DNA of 64,000 bases from assembly GCA_026396515.1 (NCBI GenBank), contig JAPLWQ010000002.1:125575-189574 (forward strand). Reading direction: 5' to 3'. Source of the stretch: Candidatus Magasanikiibacteriota bacterium (lineage in GTDB: Bacteria > Patescibacteriota > Patescibacteriia > Magasanikbacterales > GWA2-37-8). Below are positions 6,431 through 64,000 of the stretch, in pieces. Every line of letters starts with the position of its first letter. The stretch's first letter is position 1. Made by a program: the position numbers and the translations under genes. The notes beneath the pieces are model-generated. The model made no database searches, had not been told where the DNA came from, and saw only the letters and a list, made by a program, of their open reading frames with translations.

Positions 6431-6442
6431 GAATATATTTTT

Positions 6443-7360: not shown

Positions 7361-7369
7361 AAATTTAAC

Positions 7370-8377: not shown

Positions 8378-9294
8378 ATCTTGTGAAAAAAATAATTTTT
8401 TTATTACTCGTCGCATCAATATATTTATTTATAGCAGCAGATGTTTTTGCGGCTGATTTTTTATTTTTTGGTGTTCCACAATCAGTAAATGCCGGCGACG
8501 AATTTAAGATAGATGCCGTTATCGACGCTAAGAAGCTGCCGATTAATGCCCTGTCCGGAAAAATAATTTTTTCTGAAAATTTATTGGATGTAAATCAAAT
8601 TTTAACCGGCAACTCGGGAATAAATTTTTGGATTGAATCGCCAAAAATTTCCCAGCCCGGAACAATTGATTTTTCAGGAATTGTAACCAACGGTTTTGAC
8701 GGAGAATTAGTGCTTTTTTCCGCCATTTTTAAAGCAAAATCACATGGCGAAGCCAATATTGAATATACAGACATTCAGGCCTTATTAAATGACGGAAATG
8801 GAACAAAGGACATTCCCTCGTCAAAAAATATATCCGTAAAAATTACTGTGCCGGCCGAAGGAGAGCCCGCTAAATTATTTACGGCCGTCGACAGCGAACA
8901 GCCGGATGATTTTATTCCTCAAATTGTAAAAACGGCGAATCTTTTTAATGGCGACTATACAATAATTTTTCAGGCGCAAGATAAACAGTCCGGAATTGAT
9001 CATTATGAAATAATGGAAAGAAAAACTTACAGGTTGTTTAATAATGAATTTGAATTTGGAATTTGGAAAAATGCTGAAAGCCCATTTCGGCTCAGCGACC
9101 AAAAATTGCAGAGCAATATTTTCGTTAAAGCGATTGACGAACAAGGGAATGAACGCGTGGCTTATCTTCCGGCTTCAAACCCAATTCTCTGGTATGAAAA
9201 TCGCTTAATTTGGAGTATAATTATATTGATAGCGGCAATTATCTTTGCCTGCGTTCTATTATATGCCAGAAAAAAAGATAAAAACCACCAGTAG
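8365..9294 (+). CDS. Membrane-anchored cohesin-like domain protein 1
   Basis: 309 aa with signal peptide. GDEFKIDAVIDAKKLPINALSGKIIFSENLLDV...GTIDFSGIV...GELVLFSAIFKAKSHGEANIEYTDIQALLNDGNGT follows the cohesin pattern (V.aGd.f.v.v......i....f.l.yd...l.v...G....f.......G.l......F.a....G...i......f.dn.g.). C-terminal TM is IILIAAIIFACVLLYARKKDK. Start overlaps the dockerin gene by 13 nt. Confidence 0.55.
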   Translation: MDRVNLVKKIIFLLLVASIYLFIAADVFAADFLFFGVPQSVNAGDEFKIDAVIDAKKLPINALSGKIIFSENLLDVNQILTGNSGINFWIESPKISQPGTIDFSGIVTNGFDGELVLFSAIFKAKSHGEANIEYTDIQALLNDGNGTKDIPSSKNISVKITVPAEGEPAKLFTAVDSEQPDDFIPQIVKTANLFNGDYTIIFQAQDKQSGIDHYEIMERKTYRLFNNEFEFGIWKNAESPFRLSDQKLQSNIFVKAIDEQGNERVAYLPASNPILWYENRLIWSIIILIAAIIFACVLLYARKKDKNHQ

Positions 9295-29970: not shown

Positions 29971-30840
29971 AACAGCTCCTTTCTATCGGCGGCCCCTGGT
30001 ACAGGTAACCAGCACGATGACTGTGTTGAACGCTCCGATTTCTCCTCCTTTTTGATACATCATCATATGTGTTTTTATAAACAATGTCAATATTAAAAAA
30101 CCCCCCAATGAATCGGGGGGTTAGAAGGAACTGTGTTTGTTTTTTTTGGAGTGAGAGCTCCGTGCGCGTTCTCCTATGGAGTGTGACCGCCTCGGCGGTC
30201 ACTGGCACTCGGCATCCCTTTGGACATTTGTCCGCGGCCCGGGTTTTTCCCCGGTTCTCCTCTTGCCGCCGGCGTTTGGCTTCTTAGGCCATTAGGGGGA
30301 CGCCGTCCCTGGTTTATCACTTCCGGACTGGAAATGAAGACCACTTAATACCTCGTTCAGTTCTGACGGATCAGACCGGATCAGACAGCGGGATTACCCG
30401 CCAATCAGATCCCTGAACAAGAGTACCGCCAGGTAATTTTTGTTCCCCATTACAGGGGTCAAAGGTTGCCCGGCTACCTATCGCATCATTTTTTTCAGCG
30501 CGATGCGACACGCGCTCTTAGTTCTCGGGTCGTAGATCTATCGAGAAACATGGTAACCTCCTTCTGCGCCTGGGTTTGTTTTCAATGTTGTGTTTTTCCT
30601 TCTCACTGCGCCCGAACGTCTTCAGGGGCAGAATTAAAGGCCGAGATTCACGCGTTACTCGGCTTCGCGTCCACAGCGTGGATTCTCACAACTTTCGCCG
30701 GGGGGCATGTGATCTCCCCCACCCGTTCACGGGCGTTCGCTGATCTTGGCGTGTTGACGTCAGAGAAAGGGCATCTTTATCCTCCATTGCAGTGTTGTGG
30801 GTGACCGCGCCGCGTCGTTGCGCAGGTCAACCCTGTGTTG

Positions 30841-31279
30841 TCAGCCCGCCTTGGCCGCCGGCGCCTTCTTGGCGCTGCGGGACTTGGGGGCCGCCTTGGC
30901 CGCCGGCGCCGGGAGCTGAGCCACGGGGGCCTGCTCCGACACCGGGAGGTCGAGACCGCCGAAGATGTCGGCGAACGTCCCGAGGGCGGCCGACACGCGC
31001 TTCTCGCGCTTGGCCTCCCACTCCTCGATCGCGGCCGCGCTCTCGGAGAACCGGTAGAACATCCGCTCGAGGGGCTTGCCGGTGGTCTTGGCCACCAGCT
31101 TGGCGCGCTCGAGGATGCTCTCCTTGCACTCCCCGCAAGCCACGAACTCCGCCAGGTCCGCCACCTTCGCGGGGCGTCCGAGCTTGCGGTCGATCTTGCG
31201 CAGCGGCGGCACGAACGCGTGTGCCTCGTCCATCTCAGCGCCGCAACCGTCCACGATACACACCAATTTCTTGGACATG
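30841..31279 (-). CDS. Zinc-ribbon protein with Ala/Lys/Pro-rich basic C-terminal tail (histone-H1-like tail), GC island 2
   Basis: Strong SD AAGGAGG 5 nt upstream of ATG at 31279 (MSKKLVCIVDGCGAEMDE...FVACGECKES). C-terminus APAAKAAPKSRSAKKAPAAKAG. The ORF-track N-terminal extension to 31338 is probably not translated. Confidence 0.5.
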
Positions 31280-31698
31280 CTATCCTCCTTGTGCCCGCGT
31301 GAATCGCGAGCGGTTGTTATGAGAGCTTCAACGCTCAATAAAAGGTTGGTGTTAATTTGTAATTCTTTAGACAGATCAATCAGATACTATCTCTACACTG
31401 CAACCCTTTATTTAGCGCTAAAACTCGATGTAAGGAACAAAAAACCTCTGTTTGAGAGAGGCTAAAATCGTTCGCTTTACCTTATTTCCCTCTCTCAGGA
31501 AATTAGGCATATTTTCAGCATAACGGATTAGTATAGCATATTTTTACCCTTTTGTCAAGACCCTGCCTAACAAAACGCTTTTTTACCTAAAATAAGCCAA
31601 AAGACGACACGACTTGCAAAAACTACGGTTTTATTGTATAATAAAGGCCGATTTTACAATCAATCAAGATTTAGGTATTTGAAATTAGATATATCCAT

Positions 31699-46111: not shown

Positions 46112-46226
46112 ACAAGGTTCAGGCGCCGGCCTACTTTTGCGGGTTACGCTATCATCGGCGCTGGCAGGCTTAACTGCCGAGTTCGGGATGGGATCGGGTG
46201 TGACTCTGCCGCTCAAGGCACCTGAA
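46112..46226 (-). rRNA. 5S ribosomal RNA
   Basis: Minus strand contains CCCAUCCCGAACUCGGCAGUUAAGCCUGCCAGCGCCGAUGAUAGCG (5S loop B/C core). Flanked by an extended inverted repeat (processing stem). Confidence 0.8.
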
Positions 46227-46294
46227 CTTTGTACTCAGTTTATATCCCGATTTATTCGTCGGGATTTTAATAGCTCAATTTCAAAAACAGAATC

Positions 46295-49295
<3,001 letters not shown>

Positions 49296-49751
49296 ACAAC
49301 GAAAACACCAAACAGTGTTTTGTTGCGTTCTACCCAGCAGTTCATCCCACCGTAGCGGGATAAAATCTGCTTTTTTTGTTGAGCTATCTAGATTGTCAAC
49401 GTGCCATCCGTTTCCTACCTCATTGCTCATGCCAATAATTTAGCCTGAGTGTGAGATAAAAAAATGAGCCGCGACAAGCGACTCAATTTTTGTGAGTTTG
49501 AACCGCTTGGATACTATGAGTAAGATTTGAGTTGTTTGATAATGTTTAACATTACCTGTCTTTTACAATTGAGTAAAAGTCTTACCCAGAGGTCCAGGCG
49601 GATACGATATGTATCCATGTGATTGGACGTGGTCCCCGAAGGGGTTTTAATCGTAGGCACATATTAACAGAGTATAAAAAAGTTGTCAAGAGCCATAAAT
49701 GGGACAGAATGTGGATAAATATATTGGCTTTTTTTAACTAGAAATGGCCCT

Positions 49752-51256: not shown

Positions 51257-51494
51257 CGTACAGCACAATATAGCATAAAAATCAGCATATTACAAGATTG
51301 AAACACAAATGAACGGGACCGAGCGAATTGAATTTTTGTTGAGGACAATCGCGGAATCCCGATGACAAAATCGGGATGAGCGTTAGGGCACCGAGTCCGC
51401 AGACGAGGCGACCCGTGTCCGAAACAAATATTCAATAAGCAAATCACATAAACAATACAGCGAGCCAAGTGGCCCGCTGTACTAAATGATATTT

Positions 51495-53723
51495 TTATCT
51501 TCCGCCTCTGAAACCTCCACCGCTCTTACGGTCGCGGCTGCCGCCTCCTCGTCCGCCGCCAAATCCGCCTCTGCGTTCCATCGGCGGCCGTTCCACATAT
51601 CCTTCCGGTTTTGGTAAAAGCGCTTTCATACTCAAATTTACCCGGCCCATACTGTCAATTTCTTTGACCACCACATTCACTTTATCGCCCAATTTCATCA
51701 CGTCACTCGGTTTACTGGTATAGGCCCAAGCAATATCGGTCACGTGCACCAGGCCGTCCTGACCCGGCAGTACATTCACGAACGCGCCAAAATCTTCCAG
51801 CCGGACAACCGTGCCTTCATATGTCTCACCGGCGGTGATTTCATGCGTGATGCTTTTCACCCATTCAATCGCTTTTTCCAAACCAACCGCATCGTTTGAT
51901 GTGATGTTAACCCGGCCATCCTGCTCAATATCAATCGACACACCGGTTTCATCAATAATCTTGTTAATCATTTTACCGCCCGGTCCCACCACATCACGAA
52001 TTTTTTCCGGATTAATCTGAATAGTGACGATGCGCGGCGCGTAGGGCGACATTTCCTTTCTCGGTTCAGCAATCACTTTTGCCATTGATTCAAGAATCTT
52101 GAAACGCGCCTCACGTGAACATTTAAAAGTCTCTTCAATAATTTCCCAACTCAAACCATCTGTCTTGGTGTCCATTTGCATAACGGTAATGCCGGAATCG
52201 GTGCCGGTAATCTTAAAATCCATACCGCCCGGTCCGTCTTCAACATCCTGCAAATCGGTAATCACTTTCCAATTGCCTTTCTTGTCGCTGGCCAACCCGA
52301 TGGCAATACCGGCGACCGCCTTTTTAATCGGTACACCGGCGTCCATTAAAGCCAAAGATGAGGCGCAAGTAGAAGCCATTGAGCTCGATCCATTGGAACC
52401 AAGCACCTCGGACACAACGCGCATAGCATAGGGAAAATCTTTTTCATCGGGCAAAACCGGCTGAAGCGCCCGTTCTGCCAGTGCACCATGCCCGATCGCC
52501 CGGTTGCCCGGACCACGCAGCGGCCCGGTCTCGCCATACGTCGCAGGAGTATCATTATAATGATGCATATAACGCTTTGTACCTTCTTCTTCCATCGTAT
52601 CCAGAGTTTGTACGTCGCCCGGTGCGCCTAAAGTTACAACCGACAAAACCTGCGTATCGCCGCGCTGGAACAAACCTGTGCCATGTGTTCTCGGCAAAAG
52701 CCCAACTTCAGAATACAAATCGCGAACGTCGCTTAAACCACGACCGTCCAAACGCTCGCTCTTTTCAATTATTCTTTTGGTGACAATTTCTTCAACATAG
52801 ATTTTTACGCGCCCCAAAACTATAGTCATTATTTTTTCATCGATCACCTCTGCTGTCATTTTTTCTTTTAGAGCATCGGAAAACCGATCAACCATGGCCA
52901 CGCGTTCAGCGCGATTCTTTTTTGGCGCGTCAAAAATCCAATCATCTTCATGTGAAGCGATAAATTCGCGTGCCTGCTTCTCCATATCCCGAAGTTTTAT
53001 TTCCGCCTCGGTCAAATTATTATGCAGGTCAATTTTTTCCTGACCGATTTCTTTTTGAATTTTCTTGATAAATTCAAGTACCGGCTCGAGCGACTTCGCG
53101 CCAAATTGCATGGCGGCAAGCACTTCCGCTTCCGGTTCCTCACTGGCGGCCATTTCCACCATTATCACTTTATCCGGCGTACCGGCTACTACCATGTCCA
53201 ACGTGCCCTCGTCCCGTTGTTTAAAAGTCGGATTGAGCACTAATTGACCGCCAACTTTGCCGACGCGCGCGCCGCCGATTGGTCCTTTCCATGGAATCGG
53301 AGAAACCGCTAAGGCCAAAGACGCGGCCACAAACGCCGGGACTTGTGAATCATTTTCTCCATCCCATGATAGCGCGGTAAGAATCACTTGCGTGTCGTTG
53401 CGCATAGAATCGTCAAAGAGAGGACGAATCGCCCGGTCAACCATGCGGCCGGATAAAATCGCTTCCTCACTCGGGCGCCCCTCGCGCTTGATGAACCGGC
53501 TGCCTTTTATTCTTCCGGCGGCATACAATTTTTCCTCAAAATTCACCATCAGAGGAAAAAAATCAATACCATCACGGGTATTTTTACTCATGGTGGCGGT
53601 TGCTAAAATTACGGTATCGCCATAGCGCACCATACATGAGGCCTGGGTTTGGAGAGCCAGCTTTCCGGTTTCAACAGAAAGCTTGCGGCCGCCCCATTCC
53701 ATGGACCAGTTTTTAACATTCAT
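51495..53723 (-). CDS. pnp: Polynucleotide phosphorylase (RNase PH x2, KH, S1, Gly/Arg-rich tail)
   Basis: 742 aa. Canonical PNPase domain order. C-terminal RGG tail. Confidence 0.9.
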   Translation of the reverse strand: MNVKNWSMEWGGRKLSVETGKLALQTQASCMVRYGDTVILATATMSKNTRDGIDFFPLMVNFEEKLYAAGRIKGSRFIKREGRPSEEAILSGRMVDRAIRPLFDDSMRNDTQVILTALSWDGENDSQVPAFVAASLALAVSPIPWKGPIGGARVGKVGGQLVLNPTFKQRDEGTLDMVVAGTPDKVIMVEMAASEEPEAEVLAAMQFGAKSLEPVLEFIKKIQKEIGQEKIDLHNNLTEAEIKLRDMEKQAREFIASHEDDWIFDAPKKNRAERVAMVDRFSDALKEKMTAEVIDEKIMTIVLGRVKIYVEEIVTKRIIEKSERLDGRGLSDVRDLYSEVGLLPRTHGTGLFQRGDTQVLSVVTLGAPGDVQTLDTMEEEGTKRYMHHYNDTPATYGETGPLRGPGNRAIGHGALAERALQPVLPDEKDFPYAMRVVSEVLGSNGSSSMASTCASSLALMDAGVPIKKAVAGIAIGLASDKKGNWKVITDLQDVEDGPGGMDFKITGTDSGITVMQMDTKTDGLSWEIIEETFKCSREARFKILESMAKVIAEPRKEMSPYAPRIVTIQINPEKIRDVVGPGGKMINKIIDETGVSIDIEQDGRVNITSNDAVGLEKAIEWVKSITHEITAGETYEGTVVRLEDFGAFVNVLPGQDGLVHVTDIAWAYTSKPSDVMKLGDKVNVVVKEIDSMGRVNLSMKALLPKPEGYVERPPMERRGGFGGGRGGGSRDRKSGGGFRGGR

Positions 53724-53818
53724 AAGAATGCCTTTCCGAAGCTGATTTGCGAGCTACAGACACTTCTTACGAAGAGTCTATCTGTCCGCGCACCAACTTC
53801 ATTAAATTGTTAAATATT

Positions 53819-54394
53819 TTATCGTTGTTTTACACTTCTCGGATACCTTCGATCTTGAATCAAAAACTTCGCCTTGTCCGCGCTTAAATCGGTAAAATTA
53901 TCAGCTACTTCACGCAATTTGCCCGAAGAAGTCTCGCCAAAAGCCATTACTTCAACCTGTTTACCCTGATTATATTTCAGATATTCAATTAGCGGTAAAA
54001 AATCACCATCACCGGAAACCAACACGATCGCATCTAAACTGTTTGACAAACGAATGGCATCTACGGTCAGACCGACATCCCAATCAGCCTTCTTTTCTCC
54101 GCCCCAGAATATCTGAAGCGGCCTGTGTTTTGTTTCAATACCTAAACTATTCAAAGCATCAAAAAACGGCTGCTCTTCCTTGGTTTCAGTGCGGACCACA
54201 TAGGCGATAGCGCGAATTAATTTTCGGCCAGCCACCCCTTCTATCAGAATATTACCAAAATTAACCTTTGCGCTAAAAAGATTTTTTGCGCTGTAATACA
54301 TGTTTTGCACATCAATAAACACCCCAACTCTCTGATCGGGGTGCTTAAGCGGATTACTTTTTTTGTTCAGGTTGGGCTTCATCATCATTTGCAA
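53819..54394 (-). CDS. NYN/LabA-like (PIN-fold) protein
   Basis: 191 aa. VGVFIDVQNMYYSAKN...AIVLVSGDGDFLPLIEYLK (LabA/NYN signature). Confidence 0.6.
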   Translation of the reverse strand: MQMMMKPNLNKKSNPLKHPDQRVGVFIDVQNMYYSAKNLFSAKVNFGNILIEGVAGRKLIRAIAYVVRTETKEEQPFFDALNSLGIETKHRPLQIFWGGEKKADWDVGLTVDAIRLSNSLDAIVLVSGDGDFLPLIEYLKYNQGKQVEVMAFGETSSGKLREVADNFTDLSADKAKFLIQDRRYPRSVKQR

Positions 54395-54731
54395 TTAATA
54401 CTTCTTCTTCCACCGGCTCTTCATCTTTTCCTGCGCCTACCTGGCGAGGATTTTTCGCCAATCTCGCCTGCTTTATTTTTAACTTTTTGGAAAGCTCTTC
54501 AAACGATTCCGGGTTGTCTTTTTTAAGATATTTCATTAAACGCCGGCGGGTGCTTACTTTGCGCAATAAACCTCGGCGGGAAGAATGATCTTTTGAATGC
54601 GTCTTCAAATGCTTAATCAGCTCATCGATTTCCGCCGTTAAGATTGCAATCTGCACTTCACTTGAACCGGTATCTCCATCATGGATAGCAAACTTTTTAA
54701 TTAAAGTCTGCTTTTTCTTTGTTTCTAACAT
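54354..54731 (-). CDS. rpsO: 30S ribosomal protein S15 with ~35-aa acidic C-terminal extension
   Basis: GDTGSSEVQIAILTAEI..L..H...HSKDHSSRRGLLRKVSTRRRLMKYLKK matches S15. Likely start MLETKKK (the ORF track extends to 54755). 3' end overlaps the NYN gene start by ~40 nt. Confidence 0.75.
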   Translation of the reverse strand: MLETKKKQTLIKKFAIHDGDTGSSEVQIAILTAEIDELIKHLKTHSKDHSSRRGLLRKVSTRRRLMKYLKKDNPESFEELSKKLKIKQARLAKNPRQVGAGKDEEPVEEEVLIANDDEAQPEQKK

Positions 54732-54845
54732 ACATGCATAATATTTACCGAGCACGGAAAAGGCATATACTTCGCCGGTTCGGAGGGCATAGAACCCTTA
54801 ATAAAGTACTTACAGAATAGCAGAATAAGTAATTAATGTCAATAT

Positions 54846-55313
54846 TTATGGACAAGGCCCGGAAATAACTTCACCTCCGCCATCTGAACAATATGTTTTT
54901 TCTTCTTCGCTCAAAATGGCTCCACATGAACCGTCCGAAAAAAGACAAGACGATTTGCCTGCTACTCTACTTAGAATGAACGTTGTTATAGCATAAGATG
55001 CGGCGATAATAACTAACCCTATAATCGCCGCTTCAAGAATACCTTTCGCCTCAGCCACCTTATCTTCTTTGCCACGAGCCGTTAGCCATGTAAATCCGCC
55101 ATAAAGGGTGAGGGCGAAGAAAAGAATCGCCACAATTCCAAGAACAGTGGAAACAATGCTTTGAATCCGACCCGTAATTGAACTTGATGCACCGGTAGTC
55201 TCATAACCGGCTTTTGTCGCCGTATCCTTCAAACCAAACCCGGCCGAAAGCGCTTGACCACCGAAAAACAGCAAACCAACAACCGCAAAAATTAATATTA
55301 TTTTTTTGTGCAT
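54846..55313 (-). CDS. TrbC/VirB2-like (T4SS pilin-like) two-helix membrane protein, outlier copy with Cys-rich C-terminal tail
   Basis: 155 aa. Signal peptide. Conserved core ILFFALTLYGGFTWLTARGKEDKVAEAKGILEAAIIGLVIIAASYAITTFIL shared with the 57457-62863 array. Tail is KSSCLFSDGSCGAILSEEEKTYCSDGGGEVISGPCP. Confidence 0.5.
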   Translation of the reverse strand: MHKKIILIFAVVGLLFFGGQALSAGFGLKDTATKAGYETTGASSSITGRIQSIVSTVLGIVAILFFALTLYGGFTWLTARGKEDKVAEAKGILEAAIIGLVIIAASYAITTFILSRVAGKSSCLFSDGSCGAILSEEEKTYCSDGGGEVISGPCP

Positions 55314-55403
55314 ATCAGGCGAAAATGATAATTAATATCATATATTATACCTCATCTTGATTTTTCGGGCAAAATATGCTAAAATTGCTATGTTTTGTCA
55401 ACT

Positions 55404-55475
55404 GGCCCCGTAGTTCAAAGGATAGAACAACAGCCTTCTAAGCTGTGGATCTAGGTTCGATTCCTAGCGGGGTCA
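55404..55475 (+). tRNA. tRNA-Arg (anticodon TCT)
   Basis: GGCCCCG-UA-GUUC-AAAGGAUA-GAAC-A-ACAGC-CUUCUAA-GCUGU-GGAU-CUAGG-UUCGAUU-CCUAG-CGGGGUC-A. Confidence 0.75.
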
Positions 55476-55502
55476 CGATTTAATAAATATTTCGAGAAAA
55501 AT

Positions 55503-56042
55503 ATGAACGAACGAAGCCAGGGATTCACGCCGGATTCAGCGACCAACGAGGCACCCAAAGAAATTCCCGAAAAAGCCGACATTCATCAAGAAGCCACCGC
55601 AGAAGAAATGGCTTATTTGGAGTGTTTCTTAAAAGATCATCCCGAAAAGATAGCCGCGATAGAAACCAGAAGAGATTGCGAACAAGAAAAACATGAATTA
55701 CAGATGCTTCTCCAAAATTTTGAAGAGGCCCATTCTCTCGAGGAACTCAACGCCATCCCGGATGTGACACCTGAACTTTATAACCTTTTTGCGCACGACC
55801 GAGACATGTCCGCGGAGCAAATTGAATCTGCGCTTGCCAATCTCTCGCCGGAAGATGCCAAAAGATACCAAACAAGATCGCCGGCGATAAAAGATCTGAA
55901 ACCAATTGTTGCATTAATGAACAAAATGGAAAAAGAGACAAATATTTCACAGGCCGAATTCGACAAATTGAGGACCGCATATAAAGTATTATCTCGTGCT
56001 GTCGGTATGATAAATAATAATAAGGTCGACCACACTAGATAA
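55503..56042 (+). CDS. Acidic hypothetical protein
   Basis: 179-aa ORF. Coding-like. No family recognised. Confidence 0.4.
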   Translation: MNERSQGFTPDSATNEAPKEIPEKADIHQEATAEEMAYLECFLKDHPEKIAAIETRRDCEQEKHELQMLLQNFEEAHSLEELNAIPDVTPELYNLFAHDRDMSAEQIESALANLSPEDAKRYQTRSPAIKDLKPIVALMNKMEKETNISQAEFDKLRTAYKVLSRAVGMINNNKVDHTR

Positions 56043-56144
56043 ACGGTAAGGCACCACATGCCATGCCGAGATACAAGCAAAACGACCCGAAGATCTTGAT
56101 TTTTCCAACAAAACCTGATAAAATTCAAAAGTTGAAAATTACAT

Positions 56145-56216
56145 GGCGGCTATAGTTCAATGGTAGAACACTGGTTTGTGGTACCAGTCACCTGGGTTCA
56201 ATTCCCAGTAGCCGCC
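56145..56216 (+). tRNA. tRNA-His (anticodon GTG) with encoded G-1
   Basis: G-GCGGCUA-UA-GUUC-AAUGGUA-GAAC-A-CUGGU-UUGUGGU-ACCAG-UCAC-CUGGG-UUCAAUU-CCCAG-UAGCCGC-C. Extra 5' G pairs with C73 as in tRNA-His. Confidence 0.75.
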
Positions 56217-56381
56217 CTAAATAAAGAACGTCCCAATTTTCGGGACGTTCTTTATTTAAGAAATTTTCTGGGAGTTGAGCTCAATTGACTTTTATATCCT
56301 ATATATACCACTAATATGAGCCATCTTGAAAACCTCAACATTGCCAAAACCCTGTATTTTTGATAAAGTATTCCATACCCT

Positions 56382-57467
56382 ATGACCACTCCAAAAAAAA
56401 TTTTATTTGTTTCCTGTTCCGCCGGCGCCGGCCACAAACGCGCCGCCGAGGCCTTACGTTTAACATGCGCAAAAATCTATCCTGACATTGAAGCCAGGCA
56501 TATTGATTTAATCGACTATTCAAACGGATTAGTTAAAAAGACCGCTTCAAGCTATCATTTTTTAGCAAAACATCTCCCCGATGTTTATGGCTTACTTTAT
56601 GATGGATCCGATTCAACCATTGCCGCAAAATTTTTAAATTATTTTTCTTCAATTTTTCAAATTAATACAAAAAAGTTGCGCCGGTTTGTAAAACAATATA
56701 ATCCGGACCGAATAATTTGCACGCATTTTTTGGCTTCGCCCTTTCTAAAATCATTTGCCGAAACAACTCCGCTCGATATGCTCATCACTGATTATGAGTT
56801 GAACAAGGTAGTACTGGATCCAAAAATACGATATTTCTTTGCTCCTGAAAAAGGCATAGCTGACGAGATATCAGCACTCGGACGTCAGGCATATGCCACG
56901 GGCATACCAATACATCCGCAATTTTTTGAACAAAAAAATTTCAATCAGACATTGAATGATTTCGGACTAAATATTGATATTCCAACGGTACTGGTTATGT
57001 CCGGCGGAACCGGTCTGGCAGATACCACCTCTTTGGTCAAGAAAGTCCTAAAAAACCAACAGAAGATGAACTTACTGGTTATTTCCGGAAAAAATAATCG
57101 CCAATTATACGGCAAGCTTTCCCGTCTTACGGCGCCTTCAAACATTAATTATAAAATTGTTGACTTCACCGAACGCATTGATGAGTTAATGAAAACGGCA
57201 GACTTAATAATAACAAAACCGGGCGGTTTAACTATTACCGAATGTATGCATTTAGCCAAGCCTCTTCTTCTCGTAAGCCCCATCCCCGGACAGGAAGAGG
57301 CAAACATTCGTTTCCTGGAAAAAAATAATTATGGCCGGCTTGTGGCCGACCATAATGAAATTACGAATTTGATTGATCTTGTCCTTAACGGTACATTGAA
57401 ATTTACCAGCCCTGTTCTTCCCGTTAATGCTGCTGAAACGATATTACAGCTTTCGTTTACGGATTAA
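56382..57467 (+). CDS. GT28-family glycosyltransferase, processive diacylglycerol glycosyltransferase (UgtP/YpfP, MGDG-synthase)-like
   Basis: 361 aa. N-terminal KILFVSCSAGAGHKRAAEAL (MGDG synthase / UgtP N-terminal signature) and C-terminal GT28 domain (TKPGGLTITECMHLAKPLLLVSPIPGQEEANIRFL). Confidence 0.6.
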   Translation: MTTPKKILFVSCSAGAGHKRAAEALRLTCAKIYPDIEARHIDLIDYSNGLVKKTASSYHFLAKHLPDVYGLLYDGSDSTIAAKFLNYFSSIFQINTKKLRRFVKQYNPDRIICTHFLASPFLKSFAETTPLDMLITDYELNKVVLDPKIRYFFAPEKGIADEISALGRQAYATGIPIHPQFFEQKNFNQTLNDFGLNIDIPTVLVMSGGTGLADTTSLVKKVLKNQQKMNLLVISGKNNRQLYGKLSRLTAPSNINYKIVDFTERIDELMKTADLIITKPGGLTITECMHLAKPLLLVSPIPGQEEANIRFLEKNNYGRLVADHNEITNLIDLVLNGTLKFTSPVLPVNAAETILQLSFTD

Positions 57468-57894
57468 ACGGCTGATTCTCACTGCTTGGCGGATTTACTT
57501 TTAAGGCATCACGATTGCCGCCAATGGCAAGATAAGCGACAAAAATTGTAATTGAATAAGCGCAAATAACAATAACCAAACCAATAATTGAGGCTTTTAA
57601 GGTATTCTTCGCCTTTGTTATTTGTTCTTCGTTCCCGCCGGACATCATCCATAAAGCGCCGGCATAAAGTGTAAGGACCAGAAAAATAATACCAATTAGA
57701 CTTAATGCCGCGCGTATAATCGTTGCCGCTGTTACACGCGGGTCTTGAGGTTCGCTGTAACCGGCCCCCTCTTCCGCGGCCGCTGACAGTTGCCCTTCCA
57801 TTTCTGTAATGCTGGCCATCGCCCGGTCGGCAAATAGAAGACCTCCGAATAAAAGCAATCCGCAAATCAGGATTGTTTGTATTTTTTTATTCAT
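57457..57894 (-). CDS. TrbC/VirB2-like pilin-like protein, array member
   Basis: 145 aa. Signal peptide plus core IIFLVLTLYAGALWMMSGGNEEQITKAKNTLKASIIGLVIVICAYSITIFVA. Confidence 0.5.
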   Translation of the reverse strand: MNKKIQTILICGLLLFGGLLFADRAMASITEMEGQLSAAAEEGAGYSEPQDPRVTAATIIRAALSLIGIIFLVLTLYAGALWMMSGGNEEQITKAKNTLKASIIGLVIVICAYSITIFVAYLAIGGNRDALKVNPPSSENQPFNP

Positions 57895-57905
57895 ATATTT
57901 CTTTA

Positions 57906-58529
57906 TTAGTAATCAATTCCGCCCGCACAATTAAAATACGGAGTGCATGACTCACCAGCAAACCATTGCGCATCCGCCCATTTTTGTCCACAAGTTGCTG
58001 CAGAGGTAGTCTGCATACACTTTTTTTCCGCCTCCCAATAACAGCAACCCATACTCGTTTCCGGCCCCCACTGGCTTGAATCAGTACTCGGAGCCGATGC
58101 TCCAATCACAAAATTCATAACCAACGCCGTAATCCCATAAGCCGATGCCACGATAGCCAAACCGATGACCGATGACTTTATTATACCCTTGGCTTTTGTA
58201 ATTTTTTCTTCAGCGCCGGAAGCAGTCATCCAAAGAAGACCGGCATAAATAGTTAAGACCAAAAATATCACGCCAATTAATGACAATACTCCGCGGATAA
58301 TTCCACCAATGGTACGCGACAAGGCATATTGATCGCCGCTGGTATCATAACCCGATTGATTCGCGATACCCTGCGCCATACCGCCCTGCTGGAAACCAAT
58401 ATCAGGCGCAGCAAAAACTTGCGTTGATAAAAGAAAAAAACCGCCAAGTACTGCGACCGTAATGATGAACAATTTTTTCATAATGATACAATATTTTTTG
58501 AAATACGCTATTATTATGGCATGCAACAT
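57906..58529 (-). CDS. TrbC/VirB2-like pilin-like protein with Cys/Trp-rich C-terminal tail
   Basis: 207 aa. Core VIFLVLTIYAGLLWMTASGAEEKITKAKGIIKSSVIGLAIVASAYGITALV. Tail has 7 Cys (GCCYWEAEKKCMQTTSAATCGQKWADAQWFAGESCTPYFNCAGG). Confidence 0.5.
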   Translation of the reverse strand: MLHAIIIAYFKKYCIIMKKLFIITVAVLGGFFLLSTQVFAAPDIGFQQGGMAQGIANQSGYDTSGDQYALSRTIGGIIRGVLSLIGVIFLVLTIYAGLLWMTASGAEEKITKAKGIIKSSVIGLAIVASAYGITALVMNFVIGASAPSTDSSQWGPETSMGCCYWEAEKKCMQTTSAATCGQKWADAQWFAGESCTPYFNCAGGIDY

Positions 58530-59095
58530 TTATGTATTTCTCCGGGTGTAACATCGGCTGCGGTGCAATCCAAACTGGCATCCAATGTCTCTTCTTCTGC
58601 GCAAGGATTACTCGGATTTGCGCTACTATAGGCACAAGAGCCGCCTTTCGACATACAATCATTGCCACCACCCGAACCCCCGCCGGTTCCGAGACGCAAT
58701 AACACAAATGTAGTGATGGCGTATGACGATAATAATATCATCAATCCAATAACTGAGGTGGCAATTATCTTTTTCGCCCGGGTCACTTCTTCATCGCGCC
58801 CGGCAGCTTTTATCCAAACAAATCCGCCGTAAATAGTGAGAATTAAAAAAACCGTGCCCAAAATATAAAAACCGCCTTTTAATATATCTTCGGTAAAGGA
58901 AGAAACATCGGACGACAGCCCAACGCTCGTTTTCATACTATTAAGCTTTGCGCCGGCCGCTCCTATCCCTCGTGGCGCGTCATCGCCGGCAAAAACACAG
59001 ACTGGAATAATTAACCAGGCAATTATAGCAACAACAATTGTTTTGCGTAAATTCATATATTTCTTATGCACCACAACAGACTCGCTGGGTCTCAC
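58514..59095 (-). CDS. TrbC/VirB2-like pilin-like protein with Cys-rich C-terminal tail
   Basis: 193 aa. Core TVFLILTIYGGFVWIKAAGRDEEVTRAKKIIATSVIGLMILLSSYAITTFVL. Tail GGGSGGGNDCMSKGGSCAY...CCMP. Confidence 0.5.
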   Translation of the reverse strand: MRPSESVVVHKKYMNLRKTIVVAIIAWLIIPVCVFAGDDAPRGIGAAGAKLNSMKTSVGLSSDVSSFTEDILKGGFYILGTVFLILTIYGGFVWIKAAGRDEEVTRAKKIIATSVIGLMILLSSYAITTFVLLRLGTGGGSGGGNDCMSKGGSCAYSSANPSNPCAEEETLDASLDCTAADVTPGEIHKCCMP

Positions 59096-59552
59096 CGCTT
59101 GGTGGACAGGTGCCTATAACTTGGCCCGACGGACAGCTACTCATCGGCGTACAAACACCACCCAGCTTACTGCTACAATCTTCAGTTCCTTCAACATCAC
59201 CACTCTGGCCAAGCCGGGAAGCGACAAAAGCAGTAATTGTATAAGCAAACAAAATAATCGCCAAACCGATAACCGCTCCAATAATAATCTTTTGCGCTTT
59301 GCCAATCTTTTCTTCGTTACCGGACGCCGTCATCCACATGACACCGCCAACAACCGTTAACACTAAAAAAATCGTGCCCGTCACAGCCAGTATTGCCGTA
59401 ATAATATTCGCTGTGCTCGTGTTAAGATCTGATTCCAAACCGACTCCACCAACCGATTGATTCAACAAACCCGAGCCTAACGCATCCGCAAAAACAAACT
59501 GCGGCACGAAAATAATTAGCAGGGCAATGGTGATGAGCAGTATTTTTTTCAT
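59064..59552 (-). CDS. TrbC/VirB2-like pilin-like protein with Cys-rich C-terminal tail
   Basis: 162 aa. Core TIFLVLTVVGGVMWMTASGNEEKIGKAQKIIIGAVIGLAIILFAYTITAFVA. Tail ...CSSKLGGVCTPMSSCPSGQVIGTCPP...VCCGA. Confidence 0.5.
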   Translation of the reverse strand: MKKILLITIALLIIFVPQFVFADALGSGLLNQSVGGVGLESDLNTSTANIITAILAVTGTIFLVLTVVGGVMWMTASGNEEKIGKAQKIIIGAVIGLAIILFAYTITAFVASRLGQSGDVEGTEDCSSKLGGVCTPMSSCPSGQVIGTCPPSGETQRVCCGA

Positions 59553-59558
59553 AAAATA

Positions 59559-60551
59559 TTATTTGAGGTATTTATCACTAACATTAGCTTCAAATGTCCC
59601 AAGACAACACTTAACATCATTGTTCTTCTCCCAAACTCCATAGCAATAACCAGGTTTCAAATTTTTTGACGCGTTGTCGCAGGTAAATAATGTCGTATCA
59701 ATACAAGTGCCTCCAAGTTTTGCACAATTCTTACAACAAATCTGGCCGGTTGGGCAGCCTTGTGCGTCCTCCGATGGCTTACCGTTGTGAATCTCTGCAC
59801 AAGCAAATTTTTCTGCACAGAAAAATCCCGCTTGTTTTTCACAGGCGTTCTGCTCCTGAGCGCCGCCCTCTTCCTCTTTAGGCGCCATTGCCCCGGAATT
59901 CATCCAAGCTACATAGGCTTCGGGAGGCACACAACATTCAAGTCCTTCAGTACTGCATAAACCTGTAACAATTTTTTTATCTTCACATCCTTTTTGGGCG
60001 GTGTCGATGCATGCTCCCCCTCCATCTTTAAAGGCATAATCACACTCACTTACACATTTCTTACTTTTACATACTTGGTTCACGCCCTTAGCCGCGCATT
60101 CCTCGGCATATACTCCATCCGGCGTATTTGCGCACACCTGGCCCGCTTCTTGTATAAAGGTATCAAAAATAAAAATTGTAATGGTATAGGCGGATAGAAC
60201 AATCACAAGACCTATCACTGCTGACTGTAGGCGGCTCTTGGCCGCCCCCACTTTTTCCTGAGATCCGGCCGCCGTCATCCATGTAAAGCCGGCGAATAGA
60301 ATTAATATAAAAAAATAGACACCGACCAGCGATAAAGCAATAGACACTAAACTGCCTAATACTTTAGGAATACTTCCGCCTGTCGCGCCTGCAGAAATTT
60401 GGTTGGATGCGAGGCCTGATTGCGAGCCGGCAGTTGAGAGACCATACGGGTCATCTGCTGCTTTAACAATATTTATTGCCAACCATAACGAAGCCAACAT
60501 TATTGACGCGGCCACCACTGCCACAGTTAATTTTGAGAAATTCTTAATCAT
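59559..60551 (-). CDS. TrbC/VirB2-like pilin-like protein fused to ~200-aa C-terminal ectodomain with ~30 Cys
   Basis: 330 aa. Core GVYFFILILFAGFTWMTAAGSQEKVGAAKSRLQSAVIGLVIVLSAYTITIFIF followed by a long Cys-rich region (CANTPDGVYAEECAAKGVNQVCKSKKCVSECDY...CCKNCAKLGGTCIDTTLFTCDN...). Confidence 0.5.
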   Translation of the reverse strand: MIKNFSKLTVAVVAASIMLASLWLAINIVKAADDPYGLSTAGSQSGLASNQISAGATGGSIPKVLGSLVSIALSLVGVYFFILILFAGFTWMTAAGSQEKVGAAKSRLQSAVIGLVIVLSAYTITIFIFDTFIQEAGQVCANTPDGVYAEECAAKGVNQVCKSKKCVSECDYAFKDGGGACIDTAQKGCEDKKIVTGLCSTEGLECCVPPEAYVAWMNSGAMAPKEEEGGAQEQNACEKQAGFFCAEKFACAEIHNGKPSEDAQGCPTGQICCKNCAKLGGTCIDTTLFTCDNASKNLKPGYCYGVWEKNNDVKCCLGTFEANVSDKYLK

Positions 60552-60553
60552 AA

Positions 60554-60964
60554 TTACGGAGACGGAGTTGTCGTGGCTGTTTCTGCCGGAGCCGCCGTTA
60601 GTCGTTCAAATACAAATGTGGAGATGGCATACGAAGCAGCAACAATTAATAAACCAATAATTGCCGTTTCCAGCATTGATTTCGCCTTATTCACTTTTTC
60701 AACTGTCCCGCCAGCCGTCATCCAGGTGAGGCCGGCGTACAAAACCAGTAAAAAGAAAATTGTTCCGACAAACATTAATAATGTGGTCACTATTGTGCTG
60801 GCTAAAGTTTCCGGTGTCTGTTTGCTTATGCCTAATGTTAATAATTTAGTCTTCTCCGCAGTCAGATTCAGACCGTATTTGTCTTTTCCCTGCGCGCCGA
60901 CAAAAACAGGCAACATAATTGCCCCCAAAATCACAAGCGCTAGCATAAGCCTTTTAATGGCCAT
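60554..60964 (-). CDS. TrbC/VirB2-like pilin-like protein, array member
   Basis: 136 aa. Core TIFFLLVLYAGLTWMTAGGTVEKVNKAKSMLETAIIGLLIVAASYAISTFVF. Confidence 0.5.
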   Translation of the reverse strand: MAIKRLMLALVILGAIMLPVFVGAQGKDKYGLNLTAEKTKLLTLGISKQTPETLASTIVTTLLMFVGTIFFLLVLYAGLTWMTAGGTVEKVNKAKSMLETAIIGLLIVAASYAISTFVFERLTAAPAETATTTPSP

Positions 60965-61054
60965 ATTATTCTGGTTTGGATTCTTTTGAAAAACAAGCCA
61001 AACCGGAATTTCTGTCAGGGGGTTGCGCGCGCGAACCCCCTGACAGGAAGGATA

Positions 61055-61486
61055 TTAACCGCCCGTACCGGAACCTGTACCGGTAGTAGCACTGACCAAT
61101 TGACTGATAATAAAGCTGGCTAACGCGTATGCTGACAAAATAATAGCCAAACCGATTACACCAGAGAAGATCCATTTCTTGGCTTCTCCTACCTGCTCTT
61201 CATTACCTCCGGCAGTCATCCATTTGAAACCACCGATAAGGATGATAACCACAGCGACGATACCGAGTAAGCCCATAGCTACCCGAATGATACGAGCAAT
61301 AGTTGCGCGGACATCTTCACTTCCAAGACCGGTATCTGACGCGTAACCAATGCCGAGATCGTCTGTACCAAGTACGCCTTCACTCGCGTAAACCGGTGCG
61401 ACGTTGAAACTCATAAAACCGCCGAGTAACAAGGCCAACGAAGCTACGAATACTGCTAATTTTTTCATAATTTCACCCCCTTTCAA
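61055..61486 (-). CDS. TrbC/VirB2-like pilin-like protein, array member
   Basis: 143 aa. Core IVAVVIILIGGFKWMTAGGNEEQVGEAKKWIFSGVIGLAIILSAYALASFII. Confidence 0.5.
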   Translation of the reverse strand: MKGGEIMKKLAVFVASLALLLGGFMSFNVAPVYASEGVLGTDDLGIGYASDTGLGSEDVRATIARIIRVAMGLLGIVAVVIILIGGFKWMTAGGNEEQVGEAKKWIFSGVIGLAIILSAYALASFIISQLVSATTGTGSGTGG

Positions 61487-61559
61487 GGAATTGGCACCAA
61501 TGTGCCGGATAATTATTACTTATAAATATTTTATCTTATTATGAATTTTTGTGCAATCA

Positions 61560-61961
61560 TCATGATTGAGCACCTTGCAAAAATCTAAACACTGTATTGA
61601 CTAATAAATAACTGGCTAAAACTACAATTAGTCCTATTATTGACCACATCATTGTTTGAGTACCCCTTTTTACTTTTTCTTCATTTCCAGCAGAAGTGAG
61701 CCATTGAAAACCGCCCCAAACCATCATAACAAGCGACAAACCGCCAACCAGCCCCAAAAACGACCTGATGACGGTGCCTATGATAACAGCCGGAGTAATA
61801 TCAGCATCTTTAAGAGCCTTACCTTTGCTGTCAGTCAATTGAATCGGATTTTCAAGGTCAACCGTTTCTTGCGGCGTGGAAGTTGCCAAGGCAGCCGGTA
61901 CGATAACGGCGAAGCAGCTAAATAGCAGAAAAAAAACAAATATTTGCTTTAAATATCTCAT
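61560..61961 (-). CDS. TrbC/VirB2-like pilin-like protein, array member
   Basis: 133 aa. Core GLSLVMMVWGGFQWLTSAGNEEKVKRGTQTMMWSIIGLIVVLASYLLVNTVF. Confidence 0.5.
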   Translation of the reverse strand: MRYLKQIFVFFLLFSCFAVIVPAALATSTPQETVDLENPIQLTDSKGKALKDADITPAVIIGTVIRSFLGLVGGLSLVMMVWGGFQWLTSAGNEEKVKRGTQTMMWSIIGLIVVLASYLLVNTVFRFLQGAQS

Positions 61962-61966
61962 ATATT

Positions 61967-62863
61967 CTAACCAATCTTTGTAAGAATAGTGTTAACGATC
62001 ATATAACTGCCGGTCATCGCCAGAATGCCAAAAGTAGTCCAAATAAGAATCTTTTTTGCTTTTGTAATTTTTTCCGCAGTACCGCCTGCTGACATCCATG
62101 TAAATCCGGCATAAATATATAAAATGAGAGCAATTGACCCCATAAACGCGAGCAATATATTTACACCGCTCGCGAGCAAACTATATGGCGAACTGATCTT
62201 CATCGGATTCAATTTCTTCGCGCCAGCTACCAGCGAAGTGATACCTTGTGGCTGTTGCGGTGCTGGCTTTGCCGTATCTCCGGTTTTTGCTTCATACATA
62301 TCTATCACGTCCACCGGCGCTAAGATGTTTACGTCAACAGTGCACGGTGTTATGCAATAATCACTTGAATTCCTCAGTAAACATTTACCACTAACAATGC
62401 AACCGTTACTTTCAGTTTGTGCGTACACCGTATCGGCAAAATTCAAACTCTTGCCCGACTTTACTCCAATGGTATTACTCAAGAACGTAATTAGAGCATA
62501 GGCGCTAAAAGCAATTACCAGGCCAACTACTGCGGCGGTTATCGCACCGGTGCCCTTTTTAACCTTTTCCTGGTTGCCTTGAGACATTATTAAAATAAAA
62601 CCGCCATAAACAAACATCAAAAGCGCTAACGCGCCGATAAAACCAAAAATATAGAGGCCGACATTAATAGCAAACGTGATAAAAATGTCAATTTTGTCGC
62701 AGCTCTTATCAATACTGTTCCCCAACAAACAAGACGGAATAATTTTACTTGCACCCTGGGAAGCCGATGACCCCGATGGAGTGCTGGTGGCTAAACAAGG
62801 AGCGGCAAATAAAAAACTCGCTCCGATTGCCATCAAAATAAAAATTTTTGAAAACATTTTCAT
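61967..62863 (-). CDS. Tandem double-domain TrbC/VirB2-like protein (two pilin-like cores fused in one ORF)
   Basis: 298 aa. First core IGALALLMFVYGGFILIMSQGNQEKVKKGTGAITAAVVGLVIAFSAYALITFL, Cys-containing linker, second core GSIALILYIYAGFTWMSAGGTAEKITKAKKILIWTTFGILAMTGSYMIVNTIL. Confidence 0.5.
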   Translation of the reverse strand: MKMFSKIFILMAIGASFLFAAPCLATSTPSGSSASQGASKIIPSCLLGNSIDKSCDKIDIFITFAINVGLYIFGFIGALALLMFVYGGFILIMSQGNQEKVKKGTGAITAAVVGLVIAFSAYALITFLSNTIGVKSGKSLNFADTVYAQTESNGCIVSGKCLLRNSSDYCITPCTVDVNILAPVDVIDMYEAKTGDTAKPAPQQPQGITSLVAGAKKLNPMKISSPYSLLASGVNILLAFMGSIALILYIYAGFTWMSAGGTAEKITKAKKILIWTTFGILAMTGSYMIVNTILTKIG

Positions 62864-62864
62864 A

Positions 62865-64000
62865 CTATCTTAATGTCTGGCTAACTTTCGCGGCAGCGCG
62901 ATTTAGCACTTCCTGGCCCCACTGCTCTTCTCGGCCCGAATAATTCGGCGGAACCGACATCCATTCAGTCACCATATCTTTTAAGGCCTGCACCGCCCCC
63001 TGATAATTTGTTCCCCGGTACCAATTTTCCGCGATTAACAGTTGCGACACAAACGGGCTCAAATCAATATCTTCTTTTTGTTTATTAACCAAATTTCTAA
63101 GTGCGGTCGGCCGTTTTGTCTTATTCAAATAACCTTCCGTAGCTTGCGAATGTGTCATATAGTTTATCAAACCCCAGGCCTCGCTCGGATGCTTTGATTT
63201 TCCCACTACTGTCTGGATCCAATAATTTGCCGCATTGGCCGGCTTTTCCGGGTCAAGCTGAAGCATAGGTAAAACACCATAATTCAATTGCGGAGCGCGG
63301 GCCTTAATTTGAGAATTGTGATAACTATAACCGATAAAAAAAGCGACCTTACCTTGTATAAAGCTCTCTAAAGAGTCGTCCATTGATTCATTCCAAGAAT
63401 ATGTGTCGCGAGTGGGGTTGGCAAAGTCAGTATAAAAGGTCATAACGGATGCCGCCGGCGATTCAGCCCCTCCTAAATTGGATGGGGCGACATTAAAGAT
63501 GGCGCGGTTATCCCGACTGATAACTTCAACATTGCTTTGCTTGAATAAGGTGTACAAAATATCATCAATGCCGACCACATTGCCGGCGCTCCCCATAGCC
63601 ACGCCTGATTGAATAATTTTTCCGGTATCAGCACTATATTTTGATATTTTTCTCACTGCGGCCTGAAACTCCTCCCAAGTCGTCGGCGGTTCAGCGACCT
63701 GCGACCTGTCCAATAAATCTTTGTTGTAATAAATCGCCATGGTATCGAGCGAGAGAGGCAGGCCGTAAATCTTATTATCAATAATCACGTCTTTTTTTAC
63801 CGTCTGTAAATACTCGCGGTCAATTCCAAAAGCCGTGGGCATAGCCACCGGCCGGGTGGTAACTATGGTCTCCACTTGCCCGATTAAATTTTTTTGATTA
63901 AGCATGGTGGTGTCAGAAATGCTTGGCGGCATCGTTGCCAGTTTGCTCTGAAATTTTCTTAATTCACGTACATGCACGGAAACAATATCCGGCCCTTTAT
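62865..64000 (-). CDS. ABC transporter extracellular solute-binding protein (family 1, sugar-type), N-terminus beyond window end
   Basis: Frame stays open to the window edge. Periplasmic SBP-like composition (W/Y-rich, ...YYNKDLL...TWEEF...). Confidence 0.5.
   Translation of the reverse strand, partial: KGPDIVSVHVRELRKFQSKLATMPPSISDTTMLNQKNLIGQVETIVTTRPVAMPTAFGIDREYLQTVKKDVIIDNKIYGLPLSLDTMAIYYNKDLLDRSQVAEPPTTWEEFQAAVRKISKYSADTGKIIQSGVAMGSAGNVVGIDDILYTLFKQSNVEVISRDNRAIFNVAPSNLGGAESPAASVMTFYTDFANPTRDTYSWNESMDDSLESFIQGKVAFFIGYSYHNSQIKARAPQLNYGVLPMLQLDPEKPANAANYWIQTVVGKSKHPSEAWGLINYMTHSQATEGYLNKTKRPTALRNLVNKQKEDIDLSPFVSQLLIAENWYRGTNYQGAVQALKDMVTEWMSVPPNYSGREEQWGQEVLNRAAAKVSQTLR

Follow-up and report, generated by a model that had tools for sequence, protein, structure and literature searches.

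Why would a member of Candidatus Magasanikbacteria keep a row of ten pilin-like genes whose products resemble one another mainly in a short membrane hairpin? The question is raised by a 64,000-nucleotide (nt) stretch of contig JAPLWQ010000002.1 (positions 125,575 to 189,574; hereafter the window) from this lineage, which belongs to the class ABY1 of Patescibacteria (the candidate phyla radiation, CPR). Ten open reading frames (ORFs) of 133-330 amino acids (aa) lie there on the minus strand at 54846-55313 and 57457-62863, and we refer to them as g10 to g1 in the direction of transcription. A first-pass annotation, made from the sequence alone, had taken them for a tandem expansion of TrbC/VirB2-like pilin genes with hypervariable, cysteine-rich exposed domains, used for phase or antigenic variation or as a family of effectors. 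We arrive at a different picture, which we favour with moderate confidence: the locus would be the pilin set of a type IV secretion system (T4SS) of the patescibacterial kind, forming a heteromeric filament or assembly of one major pilin together with minor pilins. Such a locus is of interest because the T4SS and its pilin series are essential in the only genetically tractable patescibacterium, where their role has been described as completely unknown (PMC11665869).

The description of ten minus-strand genes, one of them with two cores, was borne out by the ORF list and by a hidden Markov model (HMM) made from the cores. The ten ORFs hold 11 cores, each a helical hairpin of ~65 aa, with two in g10 (61967-62863), and a six-frame translation of the 64-kb window searched with the core HMM gave no further copy. 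A Logan contig from SRR20698649, an independent assembly, matches window positions 51335-64000 (12.7 kb) at 100% identity and runs 5.7 kb past the window end, and the exact g6 and g8 proteins are named 'pilin [Candidatus Magasanikbacteria bacterium]' by NCBI on a contig of 328,883 bp. Core identity between the paralogues is 20-62%, with a mean pairwise value of 38% and only 4 invariant columns, so that the "strictly conserved core" of the first-pass annotation was an overstatement; outside the core, identity falls to 15-19%. At the DNA level the best stretches common to any two copies are 49-68 nt long and 60-75% identical. Given this low core identity and the shortness of the shared DNA, the copies are old, diverged paralogues and not collapsed or expanded assembly repeats, and the independent assembly agrees.

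All ten genes match the T4SS_pilin family, PF18895 (E 1e-5 to 9e-12), including both cores of g10. Nine of them score above its curated cut-off of 26.6 bits (31.5-45.4 bits), while g7 (60554-60964, 136 aa, cysteine-free) falls slightly under it at 25.5 bits; all 46 homologues of g8 match the family as well. NF045849, an NCBIfam model of a pilin-like protein from integrative and conjugative elements (ICEs) of Mycoplasma, gives weak matches to all ten across the whole hairpin (E 1e-3 to 3e-9), none reaching its 40-bit cut-off and the best, that of g8, scoring 36.5 bits. Searches of PHROGs returned nothing for g6, g8 or g10, and a tblastn search of g8 against 72,556 plasmids returned no match. 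We hold with high confidence that the array proteins belong to the PF18895 family.

Each product begins with a Sec-type signal peptide (a basic n-region, a hydrophobic h-region and small-x-small sites), followed on hydropathy analysis by two strongly hydrophobic segments, or four in g10. The two helices are joined by a short charged loop, GG-x-W-M-T-A-x-G-x-E-E-K-V-x-K-A-K. An AlphaFold2 (AF2) model of g6 shows the helical hairpin (H61-93/H98-136); that of g10 also shows hairpins, but with a predicted local distance difference test score (pLDDT) of 51 overall it is too poor for use. We infer that after export the hairpin lies in the membrane with both ends outside, which would place the C-terminal tails in the extracellular space. 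The N-terminal regions past the signal peptide span ~20-45 aa, well short of the ectodomains of up to 200 aa claimed before, and the sole long one is the ~95-aa linker within g10.

Whether the array is a recent expansion or an old repertoire can be judged from its relatives. We compared ~23 species-level relatives within Magasanikbacteria, taken from the species representatives of GTDB, whose loci were anchored on polynucleotide phosphorylase (PNPase) and whose PNPase identity was 68-83%; the highest identity to the window copy among anchored loci was 86%. In these relatives 8-12 cores occupy the same place, upstream of rpsO-NYN-pnp, and the best match of each window gene has the same rank in the series. 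Reciprocal best hits keep a strictly collinear order in 23/23 loci; they were obtained in all 23 for g9 (61560-61961, 133 aa, with a short cysteine-free tail), g8 and g3, in 21 for g10, in 19 for g1 and in 5 for g4, the least widely conserved paralogue. In the closest genomes orthologues are 44-95% identical, above the identity of paralogues. This synteny, with collinear orthologues in 23 related species, indicates that, as far as sequences can tell, the array is an ancient fixed repertoire and neither a recent expansion nor a variation cassette; the same paralogues stand in the same order throughout, which does not fit the tandem expansion first proposed.

The same comparison bears on the proposal that the array is a phase- or antigenically variable surface repertoire generated by recombination or gene conversion among its copies. 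A head-to-tail array with a conserved core and differing exposed parts is what such a repertoire would look like, and a precedent exists in the virB2 paralogues of Anaplasma and Bartonella, to which PMC12102498 refers. However, no long identical tracts were found between copies, so that nothing points to gene conversion. Each copy is a complete gene with a signal peptide of its own, and there are no silent cassettes; scans of the window recovered no notable flanking inverted repeats, invertible segment or slippage-prone repeat at the array and no recombinase family among the ORFs scanned. The independent assembly is identical, and the positional orthologues persist across species with their cysteine scaffolds. 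Together with the excess of orthologue over paralogue identity, these results argue against recent expansion, gene conversion and phase or antigenic variation, and we regard a variable repertoire as very improbable here.

The exposed parts do evolve faster than the cores. Nonsynonymous divergence (dN) is 0.31 in the tails and 0.07 in the cores, a difference of ~4 times. We compared core and tails by dN and amino-acid identity; dN/dS was unusable for this comparison because synonymous sites are saturated (proportion of synonymous differences, pS, ~0.7) even with the closest relative. The tails are nevertheless not hypervariable: those of paralogues are unrelated, while those of orthologues are 40-62% identical and keep an invariant cysteine scaffold. 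Cysteine counts, previously put at 4-30 per tail, are in fact zero in g2 (57457-57894, 145 aa), g7, g8, g9 and g10, 4 in g1 (54846-55313), 6 each in g3 (57906-58481), g4 (58514-59056) and g5 (59064-59552), and 22 in the 201-aa tail of g6 (59559-60551), to which the g10 linker adds 4. At least 18 of the 22 cysteines of g6 are invariant in 21 homologues of 38-79% identity, and AF2 models this tail as small beta-rich domains (pLDDT ~80-88) with no recognisable known fold in fold searches. A module of six cysteines, C-x-GGxC-x-C-x-C-x-CC, occurs in g4, in g5 (as C-x4-GGxC-x5-C-x7-C-x9-CC) and twice in g6, while the pattern of g3 is unlike it. A strict pattern of the module was found in 21 of 263 array proteins, where shuffling predicts 0.2, and it is therefore real but one tail type among several.

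Among 253 array proteins of the relatives, 34% carry at least 4 cysteines in the C-terminal tail, 99% of tails with two or more cysteines have an even number, and cysteine density is 7.8% in tails and 1.3% elsewhere. The even counts and the enrichment point to intramolecular disulfides in an extracytoplasmic domain, in agreement with a topology that leaves both ends outside, and suggest that the tails are extracellular, disulfide-stabilised knobs. Cysteine-rich domains are also frequent in secreted proteins, and an equivalent array in TM7x was first termed 'putative effector genes', three of which rise in stable symbiosis (bioRxiv 2022.03.25.485537); one could accordingly ask if the array encodes a family of secreted T4SS effectors, as the first-pass annotation had suggested. 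Yet every protein has a Sec signal peptide and two strongly hydrophobic helices, the conserved part is the membrane hairpin and not the soluble part, and in five of the ten there is scarcely any soluble domain. A pair of transmembrane helices speaks against a soluble, delivered effector, and we give this explanation hardly any credence.

If the paralogues are fixed, do they share one task equally? To read the transcriptional layout we refined the start codons of three genes: g8 to 61468 (61055-61486 as listed), g4 to 59056 and g3 to 58481. With these starts the intergenic gaps from g10 to g2 are 5, 91, 90, 2, 6, 7, 32 and 11 nt, that is, 2-32 nt everywhere except on both sides of g8, and the stop of a solute-binding protein (SBP) gene lies 1 nt ahead of the g10 start. 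Given these short gaps, nine pilin genes and the SBP gene ahead of them appear to form a single operon. A strong terminator-like hairpin (57328-57356, minus strand; 12 bp and a T-run) ~100 nt past g2, within the 3' end of a glycosyltransferase gene, is likely the terminator of this operon, and g1, 2.1 kb apart from the other pilin genes, has promoter-like sites of its own at 55344-55401 and would be transcribed separately.

One gene of the operon stands out. The product of g8 (61055-61468, 137 aa) has the shortest extensions, free of cysteine, and the best pilin HMM scores of the array. It is also the most conserved paralogue, with a median orthologue identity of 64% compared to 37-48% for the others; database searches return 2,355 homologues of g8 at E<=1e-8, whereas g6 and g10 have 31 and 41, respectively, at E<=1e-5. 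The gene sits between the operon's two longest spacers (91 and 90 nt). The first is AT-rich and holds a promoter-like site (61528-61555) and a strong Shine-Dalgarno (SD) site, GAAAGGGGGTGA (61472-61484, minus strand), 4-5 nt ahead of the g8 ATG. A GGRGG motif precedes the ATG in 23 of 24 g8 orthologues, whereas only 12 of 215 other array genes have one ahead of any of their possible starts, and 33 of 45 other genes of the genome lack any SD match.

In the second spacer a GC-rich stem-loop, CAGGGGGTTCGCGCGCGCAACCCCCTG (61016-61042, minus strand), lies directly 3' of the g8 stop. This region folds with z = -5.2, and the 70 nt past the stop reach a folding energy of -20 kcal/mol or lower in 83% of g8 orthologue loci and in 6% of other array genes (Mann-Whitney p = 1e-11). 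The window has a single copy of the element, as does each of nine loci with the exact core, and RNAalifold recovered 19 pairs, 13 of them with compensatory changes. We predict that it acts as an attenuator or terminator, or as an mRNA-stabilising element. Given that g8 combines the highest conservation, the sole conserved strong ribosome-binding site and a conserved, covarying 3' hairpin, it is probably the major pilin, and the remaining ~nine are probably minor pilins.

A further clue comes from g10, which carries a signal peptide, two hairpin cores and the ~95-aa linker with its cysteines. We found 13 full-length fused homologues in NCBI, JGI, ENA and Logan assemblies, while four loci (L047, L016, L012 and L023) have two adjacent genes in place of the fused one, the second with its own signal peptide. 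Because the halves are separate neighbours there, g10 is, on comparison of these loci, the derived form, in which two adjoining pilin genes have been joined in frame. The fusion is topologically consistent, since the ends that it joins, C-terminal in the first hairpin and N-terminal in the second, would both be outside, and the joining of neighbours suggests a physical partnership between the two subunits.

Chains with several hairpins also occur elsewhere in the family. A profile of the window cores matched 76,674 cluster representatives at E<=1e-3 among 1.84 billion proteins, and many family members have 2-17 cores per chain, among them P0080 (1,775 aa, 17 cores) and P0073 (820 aa, 8 cores). 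The latter is a single ORF under genetic code 11 and is present on three contigs, of which two were read (one from JGI and one from ENA); its gene adjoins one for a pilin-PKD fusion. Members with 6, 8 or 17 cores include P0080, P0073, P0074 and the product of L068 6001-8463, and in the literature searched we found no mention of 'poly-pilins'. Elsewhere PF18895 cores are fused to PKD, Big_5 or Big_7 domains (L068 9228-12557; P0030, P0031), and a 718-aa PKD-repeat protein is encoded beside a pilin array. These fusions indicate that exposed domains besides cysteine-rich knobs have also been attached to the hairpin.

The paralogues could still be redundant alternatives, each building its own homopolymeric pilus or variant surface so that many together broaden the host range. 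They do differ mainly in their exposed parts, their tails evolve about four times faster than their cores, and the authors of a 2025 survey propose versatility towards different host strains (PMC12102498). Against this stand the tight packing of the genes in a single operon, by which they would be co-expressed, the retention of paralogue order over 23 species, the fusion of two paralogues in one polypeptide and the restriction of strong translation and transcript-stability signals to one copy. In addition, the T4SS cluster of Southlakia epibionticum ML1 contains a series of pilin genes reported to be essential (Wang et al. 2023, PMC10633639; see also PMC12857230), so these genes are apparently not redundant. 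We consider redundancy improbable; with orthology so strictly positional from species to species, and with two neighbours fused into one gene, we infer instead that the paralogues are non-redundant parts of a single assembly and not interchangeable variants.

The heteromeric assembly that we favour could work as follows. The proteins would be exported by Sec and inserted as hairpins in the membrane, with g8 supplying the bulk of the structure and its 3' hairpin stabilising the g8 transcript or attenuating read-through. As the other nine keep the polymerisation core, the same machinery could handle them. These minor pilins bear paralogue-specific N- and C-terminal extensions, five of the C-terminal tails presumably forming disulfide-stabilised knobs, and may sit at the tip or base of the filament or on its surface, or make up a priming complex, and mediate contact with host cells. 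A more specific version can be offered only tentatively: a defined heteromeric filament in which a g8-type major subunit is joined by ~ten non-redundant minor subunits that share the hairpin as a handle and present disulfide knobs, or PKD or Ig domains elsewhere, to the host cell, with covalent fusion of hairpins (two here, up to 17 in other members) pre-assembling neighbours throughout the family. If this were true, it would constitute a modular adhesin-display pilus unlike any characterised T4SS pilus, and would provide a sequence rule for choosing the major pilin in other Patescibacteria.

Several observations weigh against a T4SS filament with g8 as its main subunit. To our knowledge, no pilus has ever been seen for the PF18895 family. 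Among the ORFs scanned with Pfam in the 64-kb window and in the 5.7 kb beyond it (~70 kb) there was no VirB4, VirB6, TrsD or VirD4, which bears out what the first-pass annotation had said of the window for VirB4, VirD4 and VirB6, and the link of this array to a T4SS comes from homology and from published co-localisation in other genomes. The affinity to classical conjugative pilins is also faint: in PF04956 (TrbC/VirB2) g8 alone matches, at 21.8-22 bits (E 2e-4), under the cut-off of 27.9 bits, and the other nine genes have no match at E<=0.1. The first-pass assignment to the CPR T4SS-pilin family stands for all ten genes, while the match to TrbC/VirB2 stays below the curated cut-off. Comparison by hhalign of the 46-member g8 profile with A. 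tumefaciens VirB2 (a query 100% identical to the annotated virB2) gave a weak match of 39% probability (E 3e-4) over 55 columns with both helices in register, and the mixed window cores gave 1.9%. The profile of the 11 cores found no sequence relative in the PDB, and fold searches returned generic helical hairpins only; repeated matches of this profile to designed 'Pizza' propellers and to CorA were rejected as spurious. Lastly, the division into major and minor subunits draws on expression signals read from sequence, and g8 is third in the operon, not first.

These points leave room for a reading in which the hairpins are independent of any T4SS, the core serving as an anchor or oligomerisation unit that displays ectodomains, or as a membrane platform or pore, with neither pilus nor VirB4. 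The lack of T4SS genes within ~70 kb and the weak VirB2 links are in keeping with it, as are the fusions to PKD and Big domains, and chains of 2-17 concatenated hairpins such as P0080 and P0073 are hard to fit into a classical helical pilus. Nevertheless, VirB2-like pilin genes lie near virB4 in 1,135 of 1,948 assemblies (PMC12102498), and those of S. epibionticum are essential within a T4SS cluster. The cytoplasmic loop falls within the most conserved part of the protein, a hint that it meets a conserved machine, and one copy bears the expression signals of an abundant subunit, as a polymer would need. Furthermore, 28 of the 46 members of the g8 orthogroup match PF04956 at E<=1e-3; this orthogroup weakly bridges the array to TrbC/VirB2 at the level of sequence profiles, and that it alone does so fits the proposed role of g8 as the canonical subunit. 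We therefore judge hairpins without a T4SS to be unlikely, and retain the heteromeric T4SS pilin set as the favoured reading.

The genes that flank and interrupt the array were all found as first described: an SBP_bac_1 gene, a glycosyltransferase gene and two tRNA genes. The SBP gene (SBP_bac_1/SBP_bac_8; 62865-63977, minus strand) heads the operon and encodes 468 aa on the longer contig (L001 5410-6816); it is an orphan, with no permease or ATPase gene beside it. It lies upstream of the array in 19 of 23 relatives and is absent in L015, L055 and L064, and a functional link to the pilin operon is possible. Further upstream, within the 5.7 kb past the window end (L001 588-4437), come three genes and then an NTP_transferase gene; the products of the first two (603 and 212 aa) bear N_methyl prepilin motifs and no Pfam match is on record for that of the third (464 aa), so that type IV pilin-like genes adjoin the T4SS-type pilin operon. 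At the other end, the space between g2 and g1 holds the glycosyltransferase gene (MGDG_synth/Glyco_tran_28_C, UgtP-like; 56382-57467, plus strand), convergent to the pilin operon, as well as tRNA-His (56146-56217), a 179-aa ORF and tRNA-Arg (55404-55476), and g1 itself adjoins rpsO. In 15 of 23 relatives, too, the glycosyltransferase gene separates the ninth pilin gene from the tenth and is read from the opposite strand; a link to the pilins is conceivable as conjugative pili hold stoichiometric lipid, though this is pure speculation.

The window also contains features that are separate from the array. A type IV pilus-like and surface-protein cluster at 5783-13881 (plus strand), a system distinct from the PF18895 array, includes a T2SSE/PilB ATPase (10977-12698), Big_6/Big_13 (7370-8377), cohesin-domain (9245-10006) and WxL-interacting-like (6443-7360) proteins and several further ORFs without a Pfam match, and a frame of at least 1,577 aa cut by the window start (2-4732, minus strand), and for that reason missing from the ORF list, probably encodes a giant surface protein. 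In an island of 62% GC (the genome has ~44%), an 838-aa ORF (14021-16537, minus strand) matches MVP_shoulder (6e-29) and Vault_3, and its residues 464-774 match rat and human major vault protein chains (E 2e-20); it is a vault-protein homologue in a CPR genome, present there either by horizontal transfer or through chimeric assembly. The mirror ORF (14012-16525, plus strand), without a Pfam match, is probably an artefact of the high GC content. Another short GC-rich island (30744-31386; 52% GC over 30-32 kb) has overlapping frames on both strands and no Rfam match. Genes for 23S and 5S rRNA lie at 46118-49296 (minus strand) and no 16S gene was found in the window, which suggests an unlinked rRNA operon.

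How does the array compare with known systems? The TrbC/VirB2 pilins (A. tumefaciens VirB2, RP4 TrbC) share with it the signal peptide, two hydrophobic helices, a short loop and a Trp conserved after helix 1, and the g8 orthogroup aligns in register with A. tumefaciens VirB2. The array differs from them in its scores under the cut-off, the lack of T4SS neighbours, the many paralogues per genome, the long cysteine-rich C-terminal domains and the multi-hairpin fusions, and in its setting, since the organism is a monoderm and classical monoderm T4SSs lack VirB2. Mbov_0395/MMCAP2_0565 of Mycoplasma ICEs (NF045849), with its weak whole-hairpin HMM similarity, also belongs to a T4SS of wall-less or monoderm bacteria, but that gene is single-copy in a conjugative element and the window scores are all below 40 bits. 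The virB2 families of Rickettsiales and Bartonella (Anaplasma, Ehrlichia, Rickettsia) resemble the array as tandem diverged copies in a host-dependent bacterium with a reduced genome; they are thought to serve antigenic variation or host range in eukaryotic hosts, whereas the window copies are stable positional orthologues with extensions and the host is presumably microbial.

In its proposed logic, the array recalls type IV pili, the pseudopili of type II secretion and the VirB5 tip adhesin, in which one abundant subunit is accompanied by scarce ones that have the assembly core in common with it and serve as an adhesin or as a tip or priming complex; the protein fold and machinery are unrelated, and this is an analogy only. 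For the placement of the RNA element there is likewise a parallel in the pap operon, where a hairpin past the major-subunit gene gives differential expression.

The closest counterparts are the arrays of other Patescibacteria, and the class as such is already published: Quinonero-Coronel et al. (2025, PMC12102498) described tandem VirB2-like arrays of 2-11 pilin genes in 383 assemblies, most abundant in Microgenomatia and Saccharimonadia, and listed two Magasanikbacteria genomes as VirB4-positive in their Table S1. With 10 genes and 11 cores, the array lies within this range. Like those arrays, including the 'Sec-secreted array' of Nanosynbacter lyticus TM7x, it consists of PF18895 genes in the same phylum with low identity between copies, in tandem and broken by a non-pilin gene. 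Unlike the reported ones, it is in the class ABY1 and stands between an orphan SBP gene and rpsO-pnp, not beside virB4. In the published accounts of patescibacterial arrays we found no mention of positional orthology, of a major gene marked by an SD site and hairpin, of disulfide-rich C-terminal knobs or of fused double pilins. To a known class of system, the locus thus adds a fixed repertoire, a marked major-type gene with an RNA hairpin, disulfide-rich tails and a fusion; the comparison of 23 relatives favours a heteromeric assembly over variation and singles out genes and RNA elements of interest for work on cultivable Saccharibacteria.

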